Source: an uncultured Anaerolineales bacterium (GTDB taxonomy: Bacteria; Chloroflexota; Anaerolineae; B4-G1). From it: a stretch of 64,000 nucleotides of DNA. A model generated the notes under the pieces. That model was given only the letters and a program-made list of their open reading frames with translations, had not been told where the DNA came from and made no database searches. Every line of letters starts with the position of its first letter. The stretch's first letter is position 1. The translations under genes and the position numbers were made by a program. This document shows, one piece after another, positions 3,999 to 50,819 of this stretch. The stretch spans positions 2,563 to 66,562 of the forward strand of contig CAYYTU010000004.1 in assembly GCA_964474655.1 (NCBI GenBank), read 5' to 3'.

Positions 3999-4514
3999 AT
4001 GGAGACGATACGGTATCGCGTGGGGCAGTTCCTCCGCGCGGTCACTGCGCGACGTTCGCTTTCGCAGGAAAGCGACAAAATTGAGCAGATGCTCGACGTC
4101 TTGCCCCCTGCAGGGCGCGAATTGTTCTATCGGCAAGCCCCCCAGGACCAACGCCACGCGCTTGACGTGAGCGAAGCGCTTCAGCGGGCCGGATACACCA
4201 GCCCAGACCTCATGGCAGCTGCGTTGCTGCACGACGTGGGAAAGGCCGCCGCGCAACTGCCAGCCTGGATGCGAGGGGTGTTCGTCCTCTCAGAGCAGCT
4301 GGCGCCCGAGATGCTGGGCGATCAATTGCAGGCCCACGAGCCGTTTGACGCTTATGTCGAACACGCCGAGATCGGCGCCGATTGGGCGGAGGAGGCCGGC
4401 TGCTCTCCGCTCACCGTAGATCTGATCCGCCGGCATCAAGAAGACCTGATCAATCCCCACGGCGAGGAGGAGCGATTGCTGGCAGCTCTACAGGCAGCCG
4501 ACCGCCAATGTTAG
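3999..4514 (+). CDS. HD-domain phosphohydrolase family protein
   Basis: LLHDVGK HD motif. Seven nt downstream of the S2P gene, so probably co-transcribed. Confidence 0.6.
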   Translation: METIRYRVGQFLRAVTARRSLSQESDKIEQMLDVLPPAGRELFYRQAPQDQRHALDVSEALQRAGYTSPDLMAAALLHDVGKAAAQLPAWMRGVFVLSEQLAPEMLGDQLQAHEPFDAYVEHAEIGADWAEEAGCSPLTVDLIRRHQEDLINPHGEEERLLAALQAADRQC

Positions 4515-4528
4515 CTCGCGCCGTTAAC

Positions 4529-4684
4529 ACTACAACGAGATTTGGAGCTAAACCAGACTTCCGGAATCTGCTTGCTGGGTCACAAATCGACCCAGGACCT
4601 TCTCTTGGATTGAATAGATAGCCAACTGAATGCAAATTTAGAGACTTCGGAAGTCCATCAGGCCGAAACTTCGTTGTAGTATTA
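4529..4684. repeat. Repeat family A, copy A1. About 156-bp non-coding MITE-like element with 11-bp terminal inverted repeats ACTACAACGAG...CTTCGTTGTAGT.
   Basis: Left end ACTACAACGAG at 4529, right end CGTTGTAGTATTAG at about 4671-4685. Internal palindrome GACTTCGGAAGTC at 4643-4655. The same termini recur at 6952, 12828 and 24935. Confidence 0.7.
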
Positions 4685-4714
4685 GAAAGCGCCAGAAGAA
4701 CCAGGAGTTATGAT

Positions 4715-5728
4715 ATGAGCATCAATCAAGTGACGATTATTGAGACTACTCCGTTCAGTGTCTCCATCGCACTGAAGCTAAAGGAGGAGCATGAAGACCT
4801 GACGATCGTGGGGTATAGCGCCGAAGCCGCGGCGGGTGACCTGGTCCGCGCCCAGGGCGTGTTCGATCGCGTGGAACGAGAGCCAGGCCGGGCCTGTGAG
4901 GAAGCCGACATGGTCATTGTGACCACGCCCCTTGAGGCGATTCGAGAGATGTTCGGTGCTATCGCACCGCACCTCCGACCCGGCTGCCTGATCACAGACA
5001 CCGCCGCGCTTAAGGCCCCTGTGGCGCGCTGGGCTGAGGAGATTCTTCCTCAGAACGCCGAGTTCGTCGGCGGACACGTCCTGCTCAATCCGGTCACCGC
5101 CGACCGTTCCAGCTCCTCAGAGGAACCAGGCCCGGCCCGCGCCGATCTGCTGAAGCACGCGCTCTACTGCTTCACCCCTCTGCCAGAGACCTCCGCTGCC
5201 GCGCTCGATACCTGCTCCAACCTGGCCTGGACGCTGGAAGCCTACCCTTTCTTCATCGACGTCACCGAGCACGATGGTCTGGAGGCCGTTAAGGGCTTGA
5301 CCGAACTGGCAGCGGTGGCGTTGCTACGCTCCACCGTGGACTCCCCGGGTTGGCAAGAGATGCGAAAGTTCGCCGGCGAGCACTTCGCGACCACGACGGC
5401 CACGGTCGAGCGAGCCCGCGAGCGCCAGCAGGCGATCCTCCTCAACCGCGAGCATATCGCCCAGCGCATCGACGTGCTTGTGGAGGAGCTGATGCGCTTG
5501 CGGTCTCTGCTCGTCAGCAACGAGGCCGAGAAGCTGGCCGATGTCCTGCTCCAGGCCGCCGAGGGGCGCGAGCGCTGGGTCCAGGCGCGCCAACAAGGAA
5601 TGTGGGGCGATAAAGAGGCTTTCGATATGGAGAACGCGCCAGGTATGGGCGAAAGGTTTACCCGGATGGTCTTCGGCGGCCTCGGCGCCCGTCTGAAAAA
5701 AGCCGCCGGCCGCGATCAGGACGACTAG
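4715..5728 (+). CDS. Prephenate/arogenate dehydrogenase (TyrA) family protein with degenerate N-terminal dinucleotide-binding motif
   Basis: FVGGHVLLNP aligns with TyrA GGHPMAG. HDGLEAVKGLTELAAVALL aligns with TyrA HD...SHLPH. The N-terminus TIIETTPFSVSIALKL lacks a GxGxxG. Confidence 0.5.
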   Translation: MSINQVTIIETTPFSVSIALKLKEEHEDLTIVGYSAEAAAGDLVRAQGVFDRVEREPGRACEEADMVIVTTPLEAIREMFGAIAPHLRPGCLITDTAALKAPVARWAEEILPQNAEFVGGHVLLNPVTADRSSSSEEPGPARADLLKHALYCFTPLPETSAAALDTCSNLAWTLEAYPFFIDVTEHDGLEAVKGLTELAAVALLRSTVDSPGWQEMRKFAGEHFATTTATVERARERQQAILLNREHIAQRIDVLVEELMRLRSLLVSNEAEKLADVLLQAAEGRERWVQARQQGMWGDKEAFDMENAPGMGERFTRMVFGGLGARLKKAAGRDQDD

Positions 5729-5756
5729 CGTCCCTTCATCGGTTCGATCAAGCGCC

Positions 5757-6950
5757 TTGAGCAAGATATACCGCATCTTGATGATCGCTCCTACGTCCTT
5801 CTTTCTGGATTATGGCTGTCACGTCCGCATCCTGGAGGAGGCACGAGCACTCCAGAAGCTGGGCCATCGAGTGACTATCATCACCTACTATCAGGGCCGC
5901 GACCTGCCGGATCTGGAGATCGTGCGCACCCGCCCCACGCCCTGGCGAGCCGACTACGAGGTGGGGTCCTCGCTCCACAAGATTGCCTTCGACATCCTGC
6001 TCTCCTGGACCGGGATGAAAACCGTCCTGCGACATCGCTTCGACATTGTGCACGGTCATCTACACGAGGGTGCGCTCATCGGCTACGCGCTGAGCCAACT
6101 CCGGGGCCTACCGCTGGTGGCGGATTTCCAGGGCAGTATGACCAGCGAGATGGTCGACCACCACTTCCTTGATCCTGACGGGCTGTGGTACTACTGGGCG
6201 CGGCTGCTGGAGCTGCGCATTGCACAAATGCCGGACGTAATCCTGACCAGCACGCAGATGGCCGCCCATATGCTGGACCAGGAGTTCAACTGCAACGCTC
6301 AACAGATCCATCCGCTGCCCGATTGCGTCAATCTGGACTTCTTCCACCCTCAAGCATCCAGTTCCCAGACGATAACCACGTACCGACGCGCCTTGAAAAT
6401 CCCCCCGGGCAGACCGATAGTGGCTTATTTGGGGCTCCTGGCCGATTATCAGGGCACGCCGCTGCTGGTGGAAGCAGCGCAAATCTTGAAGCAGCGTGGG
6501 CTGGACGTGCACTTTCTGATTATGGGATTCCCCGGCGTCTCGCACTACCAGGCCCTGGCCGCCGAGCTGGGCGTGGTCGACCGGGTCACGTTCACGGGAA
6601 AAGTGCCGTATGAAGAAGCCCCGGCCCACCTGGCGCTGGGCGACATCGCCGTAGCGCCCAAGATATCGGAAACTGAGGGCGCCGGCAAGATCCTCAACTA
6701 CATGGCGATGGAGCTGCCTACCGTTGCCTTCGACACGCCGGTCAGCCGGGAGTATCTGGGCAGCCTGGGCACCTACGCCGCGCCGGCAGGCGATTCGGAG
6801 GCGTTGGCCGACGCCATCGCCAGCCTTCTGGAGGACCCACAACGCTGCATCGACCTGGGCCGACGGTTGCGCCAGCGCGTCAGCCGGCACTTCTCCTGGG
6901 ACCGGGCCGGACGGCACCTTTTGAAGATCTATCAAACGATTCTCAACTAA
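5757..6950 (+). CDS. Glycosyltransferase family 4 (group 1 GT)
   Basis: GT-B GT4 signatures: N-terminal GT4 domain and C-terminal EGAGKILNYMAMELPTVAFD. TTG start at 5757; the alternative ATG at 5781 (MIAPTSFF) is equally plausible. Confidence 0.85.
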   Translation: MSKIYRILMIAPTSFFLDYGCHVRILEEARALQKLGHRVTIITYYQGRDLPDLEIVRTRPTPWRADYEVGSSLHKIAFDILLSWTGMKTVLRHRFDIVHGHLHEGALIGYALSQLRGLPLVADFQGSMTSEMVDHHFLDPDGLWYYWARLLELRIAQMPDVILTSTQMAAHMLDQEFNCNAQQIHPLPDCVNLDFFHPQASSSQTITTYRRALKIPPGRPIVAYLGLLADYQGTPLLVEAAQILKQRGLDVHFLIMGFPGVSHYQALAAELGVVDRVTFTGKVPYEEAPAHLALGDIAVAPKISETEGAGKILNYMAMELPTVAFDTPVSREYLGSLGTYAAPAGDSEALADAIASLLEDPQRCIDLGRRLRQRVSRHFSWDRAGRHLLKIYQTILN

Positions 6951-43403: not shown

Positions 43404-43689
43404 CAATGCCTCCTGTTTGAGTCTCAAGTCTGCACCAAAGCGAAAACGTTTTGTGGAGCTGCGGGGATTATAGCCCGCTCGATTTACAGCGTCAACCGCA
43501 AACGGCTCGCTAATAATTTTGTACCAGACCTGCTCACGGCTGGACCTGCACCACCTTAAACCGTTGACCAAGTGAAGTGGAAGAAACGAGTTTTCGGACA
43601 GCCCCGTATTTGGTCAGCGTGTTAGGCATCGCCCCCCCCACAGCTGGAGGCGTGGACTGTCGTCCACGCCGAGCACCACACGAAGTCCC

Positions 43690-43740
43690 AAGCCATACTT
43701 ACTTGGACTTAGGGTGCCTGGGAACTGCTTCGTTTACCCA
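43690..43740. repeat. Repeat family B, truncated fragment B5
   Basis: TAGGGTGCCTGGGAACTGCTTCGTTTACCC matches the B3 terminal module. Confidence 0.45.
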
Positions 43741-43755
43741 GAAACGGGGCCTTAT

Positions 43756-43784
43756 TTGACCGCTTCTATCTCTTAAGGTATAAT
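43756..43784 (+). promoter_or_regulatory. Consensus sigma-70 promoter for rpmH (TTGACC-17-TATAAT)
   Basis: -35 at 43756-61, 17-nt spacer, -10 at 43779-84. A 10-bp leader hairpin CTCCCACGCC...GGCGTGGGAG lies at 43836-43867. Confidence 0.6.
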
Positions 43785-43923
43785 TTACATTCCGACTGTT
43801 GAATTTATGCGAGCGTCTATCCGGGTGTGATCGGGCTCCCACGCCGTTCGAGTTATGGGCGTGGGAGTACATCTGTTAGCTACCGGGTAGCCGTGAGCCT
43901 GTTGAGAGTATGGGGAGGAGAAA

Positions 43924-44100
43924 ATGCCTAAGCGAACATACCAACCCAAGAAACGGAAACGCAAACGAAAACACGGCTTTCGAGCACGTCAGTCGACCAA
44001 AAGCGGACGCAAAATCATCAAGCGTCGACGCAAAAAAGGGCGAAAGCGACTGGCTGTCGGTAAGCGCCAGGCGAAGAAGTGGAACTGGAAGGAGAAGTAA
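43924..44100 (+). CDS. rpmH: 50S ribosomal protein L34 with a 13-aa basic C-terminal extension
   Basis: [45 protein letters not shown] is canonical L34. It continues [25 protein letters not shown]. Absent from the track because it is under 60 aa. Confidence 0.85.
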
Positions 44101-44196
44101 TCCCTTGCCGCTGCTTTATGCCGATAAAGGGGTAAAGCAGCGGTCAGCTCAGAGAGCGCCACTCGCGCTAAATCGGGTGCGGTACGTCCAGATTGA

Positions 44197-44535
44197 ATGG
44201 AGCGACGAATTCGGCTACGGCGGGCGGGCGATGTCCAGCAGGTGTACGAGGAGGGCCATTCTTGGGCTCACCCGTTGCTGGTGCTCATCGCTCGTCCCAG
44301 TGAACTCGAGTTCAGCCGCGTGGGCGTCACGGCCAGCCGAAAGGTAGGAAATGCTGTGGAACGTAATCGAGCTAAACGCCTTCTGCGTGAGGCAGCACGT
44401 CATCTTTATCCGCAGTTTGAAGCTGCTGGACAAGATATCGTGTTGATAGCGCGGCCTCAAATCGTGGGGGTAAAGGAACCAGCAGTTGAAGAAGCACTCT
44501 CCACCTTGCTGGATCGAGCTGGATTGTGCGCCTAG
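44197..44535 (+). CDS. rnpA: Ribonuclease P protein component
   Basis: [15 protein letters not shown]...[26 protein letters not shown], the RNR motif region. Confidence 0.85.
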
Positions 44536-44536
44536 T

Positions 44537-44857
44537 ATGTTGAACTGGAAAAGATCAGGCGAAACGGGATTGAACCTCAACGGTAGCCTCCACGCAACTG
44601 ACAAGGACCCCACACAAGATTATAGAGGGCCGAAAGCCATTCTGCTGGGGGTCATTCGTCTCTACCAGATAACCCTGTCGCGTCTGCTCCCTCCGGCGTG
44701 TCGCTTTACCCCTTCCTGTTCTCAATATAGTTACGAGGCCATCGCCCGCCACGGCGCTATACGTGGCATAGGGCTGGCCATCAAACGAATTACTCGCTGC
44801 CATCCGTTTAACCCGGGTGGCTATGACCCTGTGCCTGACTTGGAGGAGGATACGTAA
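44537..44857 (+). CDS. yidD: Membrane protein insertion efficiency factor YidD
   Basis: [36 protein letters not shown]...[15 protein letters not shown] 1 nt after the rnpA stop. Confidence 0.85.
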
Positions 44858-45991
44858 TTGAATCGTCTTTGGACGCGACGCTGGCCCCCCTTACTGACGG
44901 TGTTGGCCGCGCTACTTTTCGTCACCAGTGGCTGTGCTGGAGGCGCTGCCAGAGCCTCGAGCTGGACCGGTATGACCATTGCAGGAGAGATGATCTACGC
45001 TGCAGATTTGCAACAGGTCATCGCGCTGGATACAGAGGACGGCCAGCCGGTCTGGACATTCCCCAACAACCAACAAGATGACGACCGTGGCATGTTTTAC
45101 GTCACGCCGACCGTGGGCGAAGGGCTGGTGATTGGAGCTTCTCAGCTATCCTCGGGCGGTATCATCAGCCAACAAGATGATATTATTTGGGCGTTGGATA
45201 TAGAGACTGGCGAAGAGGTCTGGCGTTTCGAGGATGCCTCGGGGCGCTACGTCGAGGGCGGTGTTTTGAGCGACGGGCTCTTCGTCATTGGCAATGATGA
45301 TGGCAACATCTACGCGCTGGACGTCGAAAGCGGAACGCTCAGATGGACCTTCAAAACCGGTAACAGCGTATGGGCCACCCCTCTCATTGCCGATGACACC
45401 GTCTACGTGGGCTCAATGGATAGACGTTTCTACGCCCTTACGCTGGACGACGGACAAAAAAAGTGGGATTTCGCCACTAAAGGCGCTTTCGCTGGAACGC
45501 CGGCCTTGCTCGACGGGACGCTTTACATCGGCGCCTTCGACGACACCCTATACGCCTTGGATGCGGCCACCGGGGAAGAAGAATGGCAGATCCAAGGTGC
45601 TAACTGGTTCTGGGGTAGCCCCGCGATTGACGACGACACAATCTACGCCGTCGACGTGGATGGCAACGTCTACGCTCTCGCTGCAACAAGTGGCGAGGAA
45701 CGCTGGCGAGAAGCCCTTGAGACGCCAGTGCGGGCCGGAGCAGTGTTGTCCGACGATGGAAGTCGTCTGTTCATAGGCTCCGAAGACGGCACGCTCTACA
45801 CGCTGGATGCCGCCAACGGCTCTCTGATGTGGCGAAACGAGAGTGAGGGGCGCGTCCTTTCGAGCCCGGTCGTGAGCGGTTCGACAGTTTACAAACCGCT
45901 TATCTATGGGCCACATCGCATCATTGCGCTCCATATCGACAATGGTCGCGAGCTGTGGGCCTATCCACAGGTAGAGGAAGAGCAGGAGTAG
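44858..45991 (+). CDS. PQQ-repeat beta-propeller protein with signal peptide ending in Cys (possible lipoprotein; BamB/YfgL-like fold)
   Basis: About eight repeats of the type DG.L/VYAL/VD..TG...W.F. Signal peptide ...LLFVTSGC. TTG start immediately after the yidD stop. Confidence 0.8.
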   Translation: MNRLWTRRWPPLLTVLAALLFVTSGCAGGAARASSWTGMTIAGEMIYAADLQQVIALDTEDGQPVWTFPNNQQDDDRGMFYVTPTVGEGLVIGASQLSSGGIISQQDDIIWALDIETGEEVWRFEDASGRYVEGGVLSDGLFVIGNDDGNIYALDVESGTLRWTFKTGNSVWATPLIADDTVYVGSMDRRFYALTLDDGQKKWDFATKGAFAGTPALLDGTLYIGAFDDTLYALDAATGEEEWQIQGANWFWGSPAIDDDTIYAVDVDGNVYALAATSGEERWREALETPVRAGAVLSDDGSRLFIGSEDGTLYTLDAANGSLMWRNESEGRVLSSPVVSGSTVYKPLIYGPHRIIALHIDNGRELWAYPQVEEEQE

Positions 45992-46000
45992 AAACCACCA

Positions 46001-46780
46001 GTGTTTGATTTTATAGCCTATCCCTTAGCTAACTTGTTGCTTCTTTTTTACAACTTTCTGGGCCACCAAACGGTCGTCGCCATCGCCGTGCTGACGATTC
46101 TGATCCGACTTCTCATCTTGCCCTTGACGCTAGGCCAACAACGATCAGCACAGAAGATGCGCGAGCTACAACCAGAGATCGACAAACTGCGCGAAAAATA
46201 TAGCGACAATCAGGAGAAACTGGCCGAGGAGCAAATGAAACTCTGGCGAGAGGCCGGGGTAAACCCAGCGGGTGGGTGCCTGCCAGTCCTGATCCAGCTA
46301 CCGATTATGATCGGACTCTATCGGGCCATCACTTACTGCGTGCCATCCACCCCTTTGCAGCTGTTCCAATTCTCCCAAAATATCTACAAATGGCTACCGG
46401 GCATCGAAGGGTTGGTACCGTTGCAAAGCACATTCCTGGGCGTAGACCTGGGCCAGCCGCCCAGCCCCGACCAATGGTGGTCATACGCGCTACCGTTGCT
46501 GGCCTTCGTCACCTCCTGGCTACAGCAAAAGATGTTGAGCCCCACGATGTCCGGAGGCTCCGGCGATGGACAGTCGCAGACAGAGATGATGACCCAACAG
46601 ATGCAGATTATGATGCCCTTGATGTTCGGGTTCATCGCCCTCCAATATGCAACCGGGCTCTCCTTTTACTTCATCATCTCCAACCTGGTGGGGATAGCGC
46701 AATACTACTTCATCAATAACTCACAAGAGGAAAGCCCTTCTGATCCAAAACCGCAGCGGCGAAAGCCTCCCAAGCAATAG
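46001..46780 (+). CDS. yidC: Membrane protein insertase YidC/Oxa1 (short form)
   Basis: GCLPVLIQLPIMIGLYRAI and the C-terminal YYFISNLVGIAQ. 259 aa, five TM. GTG start. Confidence 0.9.
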   Translation: MFDFIAYPLANLLLLFYNFLGHQTVVAIAVLTILIRLLILPLTLGQQRSAQKMRELQPEIDKLREKYSDNQEKLAEEQMKLWREAGVNPAGGCLPVLIQLPIMIGLYRAITYCVPSTPLQLFQFSQNIYKWLPGIEGLVPLQSTFLGVDLGQPPSPDQWWSYALPLLAFVTSWLQQKMLSPTMSGGSGDGQSQTEMMTQQMQIMMPLMFGFIALQYATGLSFYFIISNLVGIAQYYFINNSQEESPSDPKPQRRKPPKQ

Positions 46781-46912
46781 ATCACTCCCCGAAACGGCCC
46801 CCAGCCTCGCAGGGAGCTAACCCAGTTCGCTCGGGGGCCTCAGCTGAAAGATTTTTTCGGCAATAGATTCATTATTGATTCGCGTTGAGCGATTGTCGGA
46901 GGAGAACAGTCG

Positions 46913-47809
46913 ATGGTAAACAAAGAACGAGTGATAGAGACAGCGGGTAAAGACGTAGAATCGGCAATCAGCACCGGCCTGGCACAGCTTGGCGTTGAGC
47001 GCGATGACGTCGAGATCGAAGTGCTGGATGAGGGCCGGCAAGGTATGTTCGGCATCGGGGCCCGGGCGGCCCGCGTGCGCCTGACGACCACGGTTTCCAA
47101 AGAGCCCAAGTCAGAGCCGTCCCCTATGCCGGAAGAGCCGGAACCCCCAGCAGAGCCCAAGAAGCCCAAGAAGCCAAAGAAACCGCCGGAACCGACGAAG
47201 ACGAAGCCGCCAGAACCGGAGCCGGAGCCAGCGCCGAGCGGACCAGAAGAGGTCGAGGAGATCGAACCCGCGCCCCACAAACCAGAAAAACCGGTCCAGC
47301 CAGCTTCCCAGCCCGAACCTTCTGTCTCCGATGCCGTGGAACGCGAGGTGGTCTATGGCGTGACGGAAGATCTACTAGCGATTATGGATATGGAAAACGC
47401 GCAGATCCACGTTGAGCGCGCCGAGCCCGGCCCCAACGACAGCAAGGTGCCACCGTGGGAGATCGACGTGCGCGGCTCCGGCACCGACGCGCTGATCGGC
47501 CACCACGGTGAGACACTCGACGCTTTCCAGCGCATCATACGGCTGATCGTCGGGCGCGAGATGAGATCGTGGGTCCACCTCGTCGTGGACGTGCAGGGGT
47601 ACAAAGAGGAGCGAGCCGAAAAGCTACGCGCCCTCGCCTATCGGATGGCGAACCAGGCCGTCGATAGCGAGCGCACTGTGGTGCTGGAACCTATGCCGCC
47701 CCACGAGCGCCGGGTGATCCATGTCGCGCTGTACGACGATTCCCGGGTGACCACCGAGAGCATCGGCGAGGGCGATCGACGTCGCGTCACCATCACCTCC
47801 AAGCGATGA
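46913..47809 (+). CDS. jag: Jag/KhpB (SpoIIIJ-associated) RNA-binding protein with Jag_N, KH and R3H domains and a Pro/Glu/Lys-rich insert
   Basis: N-terminal VIETAGKDVESAISTGLAQLGV. C-terminal R3H region VLEPMPPHERRVIHVAL. Confidence 0.85.
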   Translation: MVNKERVIETAGKDVESAISTGLAQLGVERDDVEIEVLDEGRQGMFGIGARAARVRLTTTVSKEPKSEPSPMPEEPEPPAEPKKPKKPKKPPEPTKTKPPEPEPEPAPSGPEEVEEIEPAPHKPEKPVQPASQPEPSVSDAVEREVVYGVTEDLLAIMDMENAQIHVERAEPGPNDSKVPPWEIDVRGSGTDALIGHHGETLDAFQRIIRLIVGREMRSWVHLVVDVQGYKEERAEKLRALAYRMANQAVDSERTVVLEPMPPHERRVIHVALYDDSRVTTESIGEGDRRRVTITSKR

Positions 47810-47842
47810 GCGCACAGACCGTGACGGGGGCGAGCAATCTTT

Positions 47843-48781
47843 ATGGTCGCGTTAGACTACCTTGTCATTGGTCACATCACGAAAGACATTGAAGCCCTGG
47901 ATTCGAGGAAACGGTGGGCTGACTCCAGGGCTAAAGCCGGATCGAAGCCTCCCGCCCGCGTGACTACTTTCAAGGGGCTCGGCGGGACTGCTTTGTACGC
48001 TGCCCGAACCGCGCACGCTTTGGGATGCCGCGTCGGCGTCATCACCAGCGCCCGTCCCGAGCTCGATCTGCGGGCAACGTTGAACGAGGCGCTGGTCGTC
48101 TGCGTCCCCGCCGCCGAAACAACCATCTTCGAGAACCGCTACACCGACAGCGGTCGACGCCAGCTCCTGCACAGCGTCGCAGAAACACTGACGCCGGCTG
48201 CAGTGCCGGTCGATTGGAATCCCACCATCGTCCATCTGGGCCCGGTGGCCCGGGAGTGCGACCCGTCACTCATTGAGGCTTTCGCGGACGCCTTTCTCGG
48301 CCTCACACTCCAGGGCTGGCTGCGCCACTGGGATCAGGACGGACACATCTATCCGCACGAGGAGGAGGCGGCGGTGGAAAAGATGCTCCCACAAGCCGAC
48401 GCCGTAGTGGTGAGCGAGGAAGACGTGGACGGCGATCGGGCGATGGTTGAGCGCTACGCCTCACAGACACATCTCCTGGTCCTGACTCAGGGGGAGAGAG
48501 GCTGCACGGTCTACACCGCCGGTCAAAAGCATAACATACCCGTCTCGCGCGTAGAAGAGGCCAATCCGACCGGTGCCGGTGACATTTTCGCCGCTGCTTT
48601 CTTCGTCAAAATGGAGCGCGGGGGAGATCCCTGGCAAGCTGCACGCTTCGCCAACTGCATTGCTTCGCGCTCAGTGACCCGTTGGGGGCCGCTGGCAAGC
48701 CCCCCCAGACACGAAGAGATCGCTCGCTGCGAGCAAATCGCCGAAGAGAAAGCCTATGCCCCATATTTACGCACTGGCTAA
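47843..48781 (+). CDS. PfkB-family carbohydrate/nucleoside kinase
   Basis: DPTGAGDIFAAAF (PfkB signature 2). Confidence 0.8.
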   Translation: MVALDYLVIGHITKDIEALDSRKRWADSRAKAGSKPPARVTTFKGLGGTALYAARTAHALGCRVGVITSARPELDLRATLNEALVVCVPAAETTIFENRYTDSGRRQLLHSVAETLTPAAVPVDWNPTIVHLGPVARECDPSLIEAFADAFLGLTLQGWLRHWDQDGHIYPHEEEAAVEKMLPQADAVVVSEEDVDGDRAMVERYASQTHLLVLTQGERGCTVYTAGQKHNIPVSRVEEANPTGAGDIFAAAFFVKMERGGDPWQAARFANCIASRSVTRWGPLASPPRHEEIARCEQIAEEKAYAPYLRTG

Positions 48782-49562
48782 CCAAAAAGGCGGCGTCGGT
48801 AAGACGACCACCGCGATCAACGTGGGGGCCTATCTGGCCGAATGGGGCTCGCGGGTCCTGCTGATCGACATCGACCCTCAGGCCAATGCCACATCCTCTC
48901 TCGGCATCGACAAGCGAGCAGTCTCGTCCTCCATCTACGACGTGCTAGTGCAGGAGCTACCACTCAAGCGCATCGTGCAACCAACCGAGCAAGCGCTTCT
49001 GGACATCGCCCCCTCCACGCCAGAGCTGGCCGGAGCCACCGTCGAGATGGTCGATCTGCCCGACCGCGAGTATCGCCTCCACCAAGCCCTGGAGGATCTG
49101 GGACCAGGTTACGACTACGTATTGATCGATTGCCCCCCCAGCCTGGGCATTCTGACGGTGAACGGCCTCACAGCGGCCCAGAGCGGCGTGATTATCCCGG
49201 TCCAATGTGAGTATCTGGCATTGGAGGGGCTTTCTCAGCTGGCGCGTACGATCCGCTTGGTGCGCCAGTCCCTCAACCCCGATCTGAAATTGCGTGGGCT
49301 GGTGATGACGATGTACGACGCGCGCACGAACCTCTCACAACAGGTAGTCGAGGAAGCACAGCGGTACTTCCCCGATCGTGTCTTCGAGACCATCATTCCG
49401 CGCAACGTGCGGCTGAGCGAAGCGCCCAGCTTCGGCGTACCGGTGATGGTCCACGCCCCCAGTTCGACGGGCGCCCAGGCCTACGCCGAGCTGGCCCGCG
49501 AGCTGGTAGATAGCGAAGAAGCATCCCAGCATCAACACGAGGGGCAACATGTCGCCACGTAA
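48756..49562 (+). CDS. parA: Chromosome partitioning ATPase ParA/Soj
   Basis: IYALANQKGGVGKTTTAINVGAYLA (deviant Walker A), DIDPQANATS. Confidence 0.9.
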   Translation: MPHIYALANQKGGVGKTTTAINVGAYLAEWGSRVLLIDIDPQANATSSLGIDKRAVSSSIYDVLVQELPLKRIVQPTEQALLDIAPSTPELAGATVEMVDLPDREYRLHQALEDLGPGYDYVLIDCPPSLGILTVNGLTAAQSGVIIPVQCEYLALEGLSQLARTIRLVRQSLNPDLKLRGLVMTMYDARTNLSQQVVEEAQRYFPDRVFETIIPRNVRLSEAPSFGVPVMVHAPSSTGAQAYAELARELVDSEEASQHQHEGQHVAT

Positions 49563-50406
49563 GAGAGGTTTGGGTAGAGGGCTGGAGTCACTGATCCCCG
49601 CCGAGGACGGCGAGACGTCTCGTGGTGTGTTGGAGGTCGCTCTTGCCTCGATCGCGCCTAACCCCCACCAGCCGCGTTCCCCGATTCGAGAACAGGATCT
49701 GCTCGAGCTGGCGGCCTCGATCGAGGAGCATGGCATCATACAGCCCCTCGTAGTCACCGAGGCGCCCGATGGCTACCAATTGATCGCTGGCGAACGACGT
49801 TGGCGAGCGGCGCGGGTAGCCGGTCTATCCACCGTGCCAGTGCTGGTGAAAGACGTCGCCCCCAGCGAGATGTTGGAGCTGGCCCTGGTGGAGAACCTCC
49901 AGCGCTCTGACCTCAACCCGCTGGAGGAGGCGATGGCCTACGAGCAGCTCGCTGACGAGTTTGGCCTCACGCAGAAGGAGATCGCGCAACGGGTGAGCAA
50001 AAGCCGCACGGCGATCACCAACACGCTGCGCCTTCTGAAGGCGGCCCGGCCCGTGCGCGAGGCCTTGCTGGAAGAGAGAATCAGCGAGGGACACGCACGG
50101 GCAATCCTGGGCCTGGAACAGCCGGAGGCCCAGGCGGCAGCGCTCAAGACGGTGCTCAAACGAAACCTGAACGTGCGCCAGACGGAGGCGCTGGTCCGTA
50201 AACTTCTGGGCCGCCAGCAGGAGAAGCAGAAACGCACCCCCCAGCGCTCGCCGGAGGTTGAAGCGCTGGAGAACCGCTTCCGCGAGTCACTGGGCACCAA
50301 GGTGCGACTAAAGCGAAAGGATAAGGGCGGACGGCTGGTCATCTACTTTTATTCCGACGAGGAGTTAGAAGCGCTTTACGACCAGATTGTTGGCGATGAG
50401 CTATGA
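49549..50406 (+). CDS. parB: Chromosome partitioning protein ParB/Spo0J
   Basis: IQPLVV...LIAGERRWRAARVAGL (ParB box), HTH. Confidence 0.9.
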   Translation: MSPRKRGLGRGLESLIPAEDGETSRGVLEVALASIAPNPHQPRSPIREQDLLELAASIEEHGIIQPLVVTEAPDGYQLIAGERRWRAARVAGLSTVPVLVKDVAPSEMLELALVENLQRSDLNPLEEAMAYEQLADEFGLTQKEIAQRVSKSRTAITNTLRLLKAARPVREALLEERISEGHARAILGLEQPEAQAAALKTVLKRNLNVRQTEALVRKLLGRQQEKQKRTPQRSPEVEALENRFRESLGTKVRLKRKDKGGRLVIYFYSDEELEALYDQIVGDEL

Positions 50407-50426
50407 GTGGAGGAGAGAATCTGATG

Positions 50427-50819
50427 GAGAAGATCAAGCGCTACGAGGACGTCGTCGCCGCTATTCAAGAACGGTCGCGGGAGGGGAAGCTGCGTTGCGG
50501 CAACGCCTTCCGCGTCGCGGAGGAATTGAACGTGACGCCGCTGGACGTGGGAAGAGCTGCCGACGCGATCGACGTTCGGCTCAGCCATTGTCAGCTGGGG
50601 TTGTTCGGCTACAACGGCGAGGAACGCATCATCCAGCCAGCCGAGGAAGTGCCTGCGGAGGTAGAGCAGGCTATCGACGAGGGATTGGTGCTGGGACGCC
50701 TGCCGTGCGCTGTAGCGTGGGCCATAGCCCAGCGGTTCGACCTGCGCAAGCCGGATGTAGCCAACGTCGCCGAGCGGCTCGACATTCACATCGGACAGTG
50801 CCAGCTGGGCGCGTTCTGA
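50427..50819 (+). CDS. Hypothetical small protein made of two tandem roughly 55-aa repeats, each ending in a C-Q-L-G-x-F motif
   Basis: Repeat 1 LRCGNAFRVAEELNVTPLDVGRAADAIDVRLSHCQLGLFG. Repeat 2 LPCAVAWAIAQRFDLRKPDVANVAERLDIHIGQCQLGAF. RBS GGAGGAGAG. ATGA overlap of the upstream ATG with the parB stop. Confidence 0.5.
   Translation, partial: EKIKRYEDVVAAIQERSREGKLRCGNAFRVAEELNVTPLDVGRAADAIDVRLSHCQLGLFGYNGEERIIQPAEEVPAEVEQAIDEGLVLGRLPCAVAWAIAQRFDLRKPDVANVAERLDIHIGQCQLGAF

Follow-up and report, generated by a model that had tools for sequence, protein, structure and literature searches.

In Escherichia coli, Bacillus, and Mycobacterium, the genes rpmH, rnpA, yidD, yidC, and jag form a canonical operon near parAB, and yidC directly follows yidD. 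Insertases of the YidC/Oxa1 type are universal, and the events on their outer face in single-membrane bacteria are poorly understood. We analyzed a 64,000-nucleotide (nt) stretch of contig CAYYTU010000004.1 from an uncultured Anaerolineales bacterium of the phylum Chloroflexota (hereafter the window, i.e., the whole of this stretch), in which the same genes occur in the same order and at the same position near parAB, but with a 1.1-kb gene for a predicted lipoprotein inserted between yidD and yidC and probably translationally coupled to both. Its product, which we call the propeller protein, has an eight-bladed β-propeller of the pyrroloquinoline quinone (PQQ) type and is a strong candidate for a new outer-face partner of Chloroflexota YidC.

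Several described systems resemble this locus in part. The lipoprotein BamB (YfgL) is like the propeller protein in size (approximately 350 to 390 residues) and in its eight-bladed PQQ-type propeller, and its work as a non-catalytic scaffold on a membrane-protein assembly machine is like the role that we propose below. However, the two share 22% identity, the Chloroflexota protein has a signature of its own (NWFWG), its gene lies between yidD and yidC, and its predicted anchor is in the cytoplasmic membrane of a phylum that is reported to have no BamA and is considered to have no outer membrane. Gram-negative YidC carries a large, β-rich, membrane-tethered module, P1, on the outer face beside its core, much as we propose for the propeller, and the two layouts are collinear, with anchor, outer β domain, and core in the former, and a lipid anchor with a propeller followed by a short YidC in the latter. 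In the YidC of the window, approximately 20 residues precede the first core helix, and neither the N-terminal anchor helix nor the large outer P1 domain is present. Nevertheless, P1 is a β-sandwich within the same polypeptide, whereas the propeller is a separate protein, and we draw an analogy here with no homology implied. In the endoplasmic reticulum (ER) membrane protein complex (EMC), EMC3, a member of the Oxa1/YidC superfamily, works beside the luminal β-propellers of EMC1, which are important for multi-pass clients (PMC7785296). EMC1 has two propellers, one of them eight-bladed in humans, and a transmembrane helix of its own, whereas the Chloroflexota protein has a single propeller and a predicted lipid anchor. 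The Pfam models of the EMC1 propeller matched it weakly (24 bits, under the cut-off of 34); the likeness lies in generic PQQ-like repeats, with no evidence of common descent, and is likewise an analogy only. Finally, Bacillus, which has a single membrane and no outer one, secretes an eight-bladed PQQ-type propeller, YxaL, which we compared by its solved chains alone.

The genes and sites at the two junctions are as follows.

44537..44857, + strand: yidD, membrane protein insertion efficiency factor (Pfam YidD, E 1.5e-29; TIGR00278, 82.8 bits, cut-off 40)
44842..44849, + strand: Shine-Dalgarno-like GGAGGAGG for the propeller gene, within the codons for the acidic end of YidD (LEEDT), 8 nt 5′ of the TTG
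44858..45991, + strand: propeller gene, 377 amino acids (aa), TTG start (Pfam PQQ_2, E 6.8e-54)
45984..45988, + strand: Shine-Dalgarno-like AGGAG for yidC, within the codons for the acidic end (EEEQE) of the propeller protein, 12 nt 5′ of the GTG
46001..46780, + strand: yidC, short form, 259 aa, GTG start (Pfam 60KD_IMP, E 9.1e-53; TIGR03592, 180 bits, cut-off 84)

A preliminary description of this DNA had reported an open reading frame (ORF) of 377 aa with a TTG start at 44858-45991 (+) that begins immediately behind the yidD stop and ends 9 nt short of yidC, within an rpmH-rnpA-yidD-yidC-jag cluster. The ORF is present just so, the spacing is exact, and Pfam gave L34, the RNase P protein, YidD, 60KD_IMP, and Jag around the PQQ_2 ORF. 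The yidD stop TAA (44855-44857) directly abuts the propeller TTG at 44858 (gap of 0 nt), and the propeller stop TAG (45989-45991) is separated from the yidC GTG at 46001 by 9 nt. Independent promoter and terminator signals, which the same description had named among the refuting signs, did not turn up: no promoter-like or terminator-like site was found on the + strand between yidD, the propeller gene, and yidC by a consensus scan that is crude and yields total counts equal to the shuffle expectation, and hence is weak evidence.

A Shine-Dalgarno sequence inside the end of yidD recurs at orthologous loci, and the acidic C-terminal tail is present in nearly all propeller orthologues in our alignment. 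In 16 loci, the propeller gene starts 0 nt from the yidD stop, and in 10 others the two lie within 4 nt of each other; the spacer between the propeller stop and the yidC start mostly measures 12 to 14 nt. Since the window has spacers of 0 and 9 nt, and each ribosome-binding site falls within the gene before it, the three proteins should be made together and in a fixed proportion. Judging from sequence and conservation, the propeller protein is co-encoded and probably translationally coupled with YidD and YidC, and a propeller lipoprotein coupled in this manner offers a concrete candidate for a YidC partner. At two loci (L021 and L027), an extra ORF separates yidD from the propeller gene, whose distance to yidC stays at 3 nt. 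The inserted ORF of L027 (3459-4142, +) encodes 227 aa with a coiled-coil-like, repetitive N-terminus (FRETDARLDKR repeats) and had no Pfam match; its acidic tail runs right up to the propeller TTG (gap of 0 nt), as that of YidD usually does. The equivalent insertion of L021, at approximately 5145-5916, includes a run of N.

To follow the arrangement across the phylum, we scanned one genome per species with propeller-specific peptide patterns, which gave 48 loci, and placed the neighboring genes by tblastn. The order yidD-propeller-yidC was found in all 37 loci of the Anaerolineae/Thermoflexales type with downstream sequence, and the Anaerolineae-type order rpmH-rnpA-yidD-propeller-yidC-jag-pfkB-parA-parB was seen wherever the contig was long enough. 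All four species-representative loci of Dehalococcoidia have yidD-propeller-yidC-jag, at a propeller identity of 29 to 41%, and seven further Dehalococcoidia-type loci obtained by protein look-ups have the same order, making 11 of 11 in total. The pfkB kinase gene between jag and parA is kept in nearly all Anaerolineae-type loci as well as in one Dehalococcoidia-type locus (L060), and jag follows yidC in every locus long enough. At two of the seven look-up loci, L055 (4764-5684, +) and L060 (approximately 4483-5160, +), yidC is absent from the deposited annotation, with small opposite-strand ORFs called instead; it was located there by tblastn at 39% identity over approximately 240 aa. At the protein level, more than 120 clusters of approximately 375 aa, far beyond what chance would give, show 57 to 83% identity to the propeller protein and come from Chloroflexota assemblies wherever named, and the Dehalococcoidales branch comprises 120 clusters at 53 to 80% identity to one member. 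Outside the phylum, none of five propeller relatives (from Verrucomicrobiota, Desulfuromonadales, Latescibacterota, Bacteroidota, and Myxococcales) had yidC as a neighbor.

A second check started from YidC and made no use of the propeller. We searched metagenome contigs with a Chloroflexota YidC alignment and kept the best 80 loci, which carry no taxonomy, include a few near-duplicate contigs, and have YidC proteins with 36 to 77% identity to that of the window. The propeller gene lies directly upstream in all 51 loci that have at least 1300 nt 5′ of yidC; 50 of these genes were recognized by score, and the remaining one (L125) is divergent and fell just below the threshold. The linkage was thus kept in this set with YidC identity down to 36% and propeller identity down to approximately 20%. 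None of the informative loci examined broke the pattern, and the set did not extend to the taxonomic limit of the arrangement. The preliminary description had put forward relatives whose yidC operon is without this gene as the refuting case; the reverse was observed, as the gene is present in every informative Chloroflexota locus examined. The window itself has the arrangement by which we define the proposed module, namely a propeller lipoprotein gene directly 5′ of a short yidC and either 3′ of yidD or fused to it. The neighborhood also appears in a cultured organism, for which co-expression has been reported: in the network of Dehalococcoides mccartyi 195, DET1041 (a PQQ repeat protein) and DET1039 (Jag) are joined by a co-expression edge (PMC5102406). 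The two locus tags correspond to the same neighborhood as in the window. We take DET1040 to be yidC, although we found no text on it.

The features of the propeller protein are as follows.

44858..44932, + strand: lipoprotein signal peptide, residues 1 to 25, with an n-region (R3, R7, and R8), a hydrophobic core, and the lipobox residues T-S-G
44933..44935, + strand: codon of Cys26 (tgt), the predicted lipidation site and mature residue 1, invariant in 39 of 39 aligned orthologues
44936..45991, + strand: mature protein (short tether AGGAARASSW, eight-bladed PQQ-type β-propeller, acidic C-terminal tail) and stop codon
45602..45616, + strand: family signature N-W-F-W-G, residues 249 to 253, in the loop into blade 7

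The signal peptide has the core LLTVLAALLFV and ends in ...LLFVTSGC, where Cys26 is the only Cys of the protein. In the alignment of 39 orthologues, G25 is invariant and S24 nearly so, and a lipobox pattern of the PROSITE PS51257 type was found in 46 of 48 Chloroflexota orthologues, Dehalococcoidia included, whose distant members have lipoboxes such as ...LLLIAC and ...FAWQGC. Residues 9 to 23 are helical, at low predicted local distance difference test (pLDDT) values, in an AlphaFold2 model built from the same alignment. The propeller protein is therefore predicted from its sequence to be a lipoprotein precursor, and the signal peptide ending in Cys that had been noticed earlier proves to be part of a conserved SGC lipobox.

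The fold is that of an eight-bladed propeller. The Pfam gathering cut-offs were exceeded for PQQ_2 (PF13360; 183.4 bits against 27.6), PF13570 (151.8 against 133), and PQQ (PF01011; 97.1 against 26.7), which makes the protein a member of these families. The AlphaFold2 model (mean pLDDT, 86.6; predicted template modeling [TM] score, 0.83) shows eight four-stranded blades, each with a conserved outer-strand Trp (W66, W122, W163, W203, W243, W283, W325, and W367). The Pfam matches and the model agree with the eight-bladed PQQ-repeat protein of the preliminary description. A Foldseek search returned E. coli BamB chains as the best natural structural matches, with TM scores of 0.74 to 0.82 at the identity given above, followed by Bacillus YxaL (27% identity) and tetrathionate hydrolase; its alignments to eight-bladed propellers span 316 to 357 columns. 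When a sequence profile was compared with solved structures, however, the archaeal chain 3hxj and YxaL-like PQQ-type chains of Bacillus scored better than BamB.

Several conserved residues of the family lie in the loops. W250, F251, and W252 of the NWFWG signature are invariant in Anaerolineae and conserved in at least six of the seven Dehalococcoidia orthologues, and a divergent locus (L131) has the related signature NWVWA. Forty residues are common to the Anaerolineae and Dehalococcoidia orthologues, including NWFWG, W172, P175, and G209-A210, all of which sit in the blade-to-blade loops of consecutive blades. We infer that these loop residues form one conserved face.

In some loci, yidD and the propeller gene are fused. 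Two low-GC contigs (L125:567-1991 and L128:2542-3963, both +) have no separate yidD and instead encode one YidD-propeller protein of 473 to 474 aa, which has a YidD domain at its N-terminus (39.9 bits in Pfam against a cut-off of 27), followed by a hydrophobic segment with a lipobox (...LFVSC) and then by the propeller. Three further loci (L012:5773-7128, L016:4391-5752, and L041:5719-7062) have yidD and the propeller gene in one frame of approximately 450 aa; in L012 and L016, a sense codon takes the place of the yidD stop, and the internal TTG and Shine-Dalgarno sequence are retained. If signal peptidase II still cleaves these fusions, YidD would keep a transmembrane anchor. The fusions are a hint that YidD acts at the membrane, beside a signal peptide.

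Genomic linkage, translational coupling, and the YidD fusions together make an accessory-factor role at YidC well motivated. In the mechanism that we propose, the signal peptide would direct export of the precursor, Cys26 would receive the lipid, and cleavage would take place just before this residue, so that the mature propeller of approximately 351 residues would be tethered by approximately 10 residues to the outer leaflet of the cytoplasmic membrane. There, on the outer face, it may act as a scaffold or subunit of an insertion module that also comprises YidD and YidC. As membrane proteins leave YidC, their exported parts (loops and domains) would be bound, held, or organized by the propeller, as by a holdase; alternatively, it may recruit other envelope factors to the insertase. 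A candidate binding site is the aromatic surface formed by the blade-leading loops, with W172, G209-A210-F211, and W250-F251-W252. We consider the chances evenly balanced that the propeller is a lipoprotein scaffold of the outer leaflet that is co-produced with YidD and YidC and acts on the outer face of the insertase. A bolder extension, which we put forward only tentatively and think somewhat unlikely as it stands, is a three-part Chloroflexota insertase in which the membrane-embedded YidC core is flanked by YidD on the inner side and by a dedicated, lipid-anchored propeller on the outer side. If true, it would be an independently evolved bacterial counterpart of the EMC3-EMC1 pair of the eukaryotic ER, and the propeller would be the first dedicated outer-face YidC subunit from a bacterium considered single-membraned.

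Several points weigh against a function at YidC. The order rpmH-rnpA-yidD-yidC-jag is kept across bacteria even though rpmH and rnpA are functionally unrelated to yidC, and because this rigid operon keeps unrelated genes, a newcomer to it might remain beside yidC with no functional tie to the insertase. The short YidC of Actinobacteria, which is of the same type, to our knowledge works without such a partner. The loci that we could place by class are of the Anaerolineae and Dehalococcoidia types. In a mirror-tree analysis of eight genes at 24 Anaerolineae-type loci, with the shared phylogenetic signal removed, YidC was the best rate-covariation partner of the propeller among its seven neighbors (partial r, 0.48; permutation p, 0.0002), but control pairs reach similar values (parA-jag, 0.46; parA-pfkB, 0.44), and we regard the covariation of the propeller with YidC as suggestive and not specific. 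Lastly, no fusion of the propeller with YidC was seen when a concatenated query of the two was searched against 1.84 billion representatives, a search that was uninformative because the best 150 matches were nearly all giant multi-propeller proteins. The query matched 98,162 representatives at E ≤ 0.001, the best-scoring matches being to propeller repeats. Among the best 150 (P0241-P0390), all but one orthologue representative were giant multi-propeller proteins of up to 7,398 residues, with 4 to 17 matched stretches of PQQ-type repeats each.

These points would fit an envelope lipoprotein scaffold that has nothing to do with YidC, organizing, e.g., surface-layer, cell-wall, or signaling proteins, and that is locked in the operon. 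According to this explanation, which we regard as a real possibility though not a probable one, a single ancestral insertion was kept because the operon is hard to break and offers a suitable growth-coupled expression. The operon already mixes functions (L34, the RNase P protein, and Jag), PQQ-type propellers are very common generic interaction modules, as the number of matched representatives illustrates, related propellers among the matches are also joined to kinases and TIR domains, and the control gene pairs covary about as much as the propeller and YidC do. Against it, the linkage is complete in approximately 100 loci despite a propeller identity as low as approximately 20% and changing surrounding genes, the gap to yidC is held at 3 to 14 nt even where an extra ORF is inserted upstream, and the propeller gene has repeatedly been fused with yidD, which encodes a factor tied to membrane insertion. 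Moreover, Dehalococcoides, described as lacking peptidoglycan (PMC10284905), has an orthologue (PMC5102406), and the occurrence of the family there argues against a role tied to a cell wall or an outer membrane.

The remaining explanations, that the propeller is an enzyme or a true BamB, are improbable even when taken together. Two kinds of enzyme come into question, PQQ-dependent dehydrogenases and cofactor-free hydrolases (e.g., tetrathionate hydrolase), as might be suggested by the Pfam PQQ score of 97 bits and the presence of tetrathionate hydrolase among the structural matches; we hold an enzymatic role to be very improbable. The protein missed the NCBIfam dehydrogenase cut-offs (98.3 bits against 480 for TIGR03075 and 57.3 against 833 for TIGR03074), and its mature form of approximately 351 aa is too short when compared with the approximately 570 to 760 aa of the solved PQQ dehydrogenases that it matched, a length that the cofactor pocket requires. 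Methanol and ethanol dehydrogenases carry a vicinal Cys-Cys disulfide at the active site, which cannot form here because the sole Cys is the lipobox Cys26. Pfam detected no redox partner and no PQQ synthesis genes in the operon. A dehydrogenase active site, which the preliminary description had said would make the protein an unrelated enzyme, is thus not indicated by any dehydrogenase signature at these cut-offs.

That the protein is a true BamB, i.e., a lipoprotein of a β-barrel assembly machine (BAM) in a hidden outer membrane, is scarcely credible, since, despite the structural matches, the lipoprotein-type signal, the eight blades, the similar size, and the BamB label given by automatic pipelines, it missed both equivalog cut-offs (169.2 bits against 285.2 for TIGR03300 and 142.4 against 423 for NF008351), is closer by sequence profile to the archaeal and Bacillus propellers 3hxj and YxaL, is encoded in the yidC operon and not beside any Omp85 gene, and belongs to a phylum reported to have no BAM or lipopolysaccharide genes and considered single-membrane (PMC13319060, PMC8871954, PMC10284905). 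Of the earlier term "BamB-like", the part that refers to the fold holds, and the part that would imply family membership does not. Because the equivalog cut-offs were missed and the phylum is reported to be without BAM genes, the BamB label on this family reflects its fold only. Public pipelines name many family members (P0002, P0015, P0020, P0422, and others) "outer membrane protein assembly factor BamB", and others are named "dehydrogenase" or "serine/threonine-protein kinase". Correcting the widespread BamB label matters, as it could pass wrongly as evidence of an outer membrane in the debate on the number of membranes (one or two) in Chloroflexota.

Neither the fold nor the lipoprotein class nor the operon is new in itself. 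In the literature that could be searched, neither the conserved insertion of a propeller gene between yidD and yidC, seen here in two or more Chloroflexota classes, nor the YidD-propeller fusions appear to have been described. For a link between YidC and a propeller in Chloroflexi, we found nothing relevant there, the only trace being the DET1041/DET1039 table entry.

The propeller gene is the fourth of nine consecutive + strand genes (43924-50406), as assigned from Pfam matches and the ORF list. The other members, and the promoter candidate that precedes them, are as follows.

43756..43784, + strand: sigma-70-like promoter candidate 5′ of rpmH (TTGACC, 17 nt, TATAAT; 11 of 12 consensus positions)
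43924..44100, + strand: rpmH, ribosomal protein L34 (Pfam Ribosomal_L34, E 1.8e-21)
44197..44535, + strand: rnpA, RNase P protein (Pfam Ribonuclease_P, E 2.9e-26)
46913..47809, + strand: jag/khpB, with Jag_N, KH, and R3H domains (Pfam)
47843..48781, + strand: pfkB-family kinase (Pfam)
48756..49562, + strand: parA (Pfam)
49549..50406, + strand: parB (Pfam)

The candidate at 43756-43784 was the sole promoter-like site on the + strand within 43500-50600 in the consensus scan. Two overlaps occur at the 3′ end of the cluster, of 26 nt between pfkB and parA (48756-48781) and of 14 nt between parA and parB (49549-49562). In the whole window, the tRNA and Rfam scans found no tRNA gene and no Rfam family at its gathering score.

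The start of yidD is uncertain. Its ORF opens at 44486, the YidD domain spans approximately 44636-44833, and the first ATG, at 44537, is the probable start. The protein of the window reads PKAILLG where its orthologues start with MKAVLLG; because Pro replaces Met at the usual start, translation must begin upstream, probably at this ATG, which lies 1 nt past the rnpA stop. A start at this position adds an N-terminal extension of approximately 31 residues that is unseen in most relatives.

The C-terminus of YidC is basic (KPQRRKPPKQ; 46730-46780), and the YidC tail of Dehalococcoidia is 60 to 90 residues long and very rich in Arg and Lys. Such a basic tail resembles the ribosome-binding tails of Oxa1 and Gram-positive YidC2. 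In Jag, a long low-complexity linker rich in Pro, Glu, and Lys (47100-47300) connects the N-terminal domain to the KH-R3H part, and the corresponding linker region yields a spurious Trypan_PARP match in Pfam at two other loci (L002 and L003).

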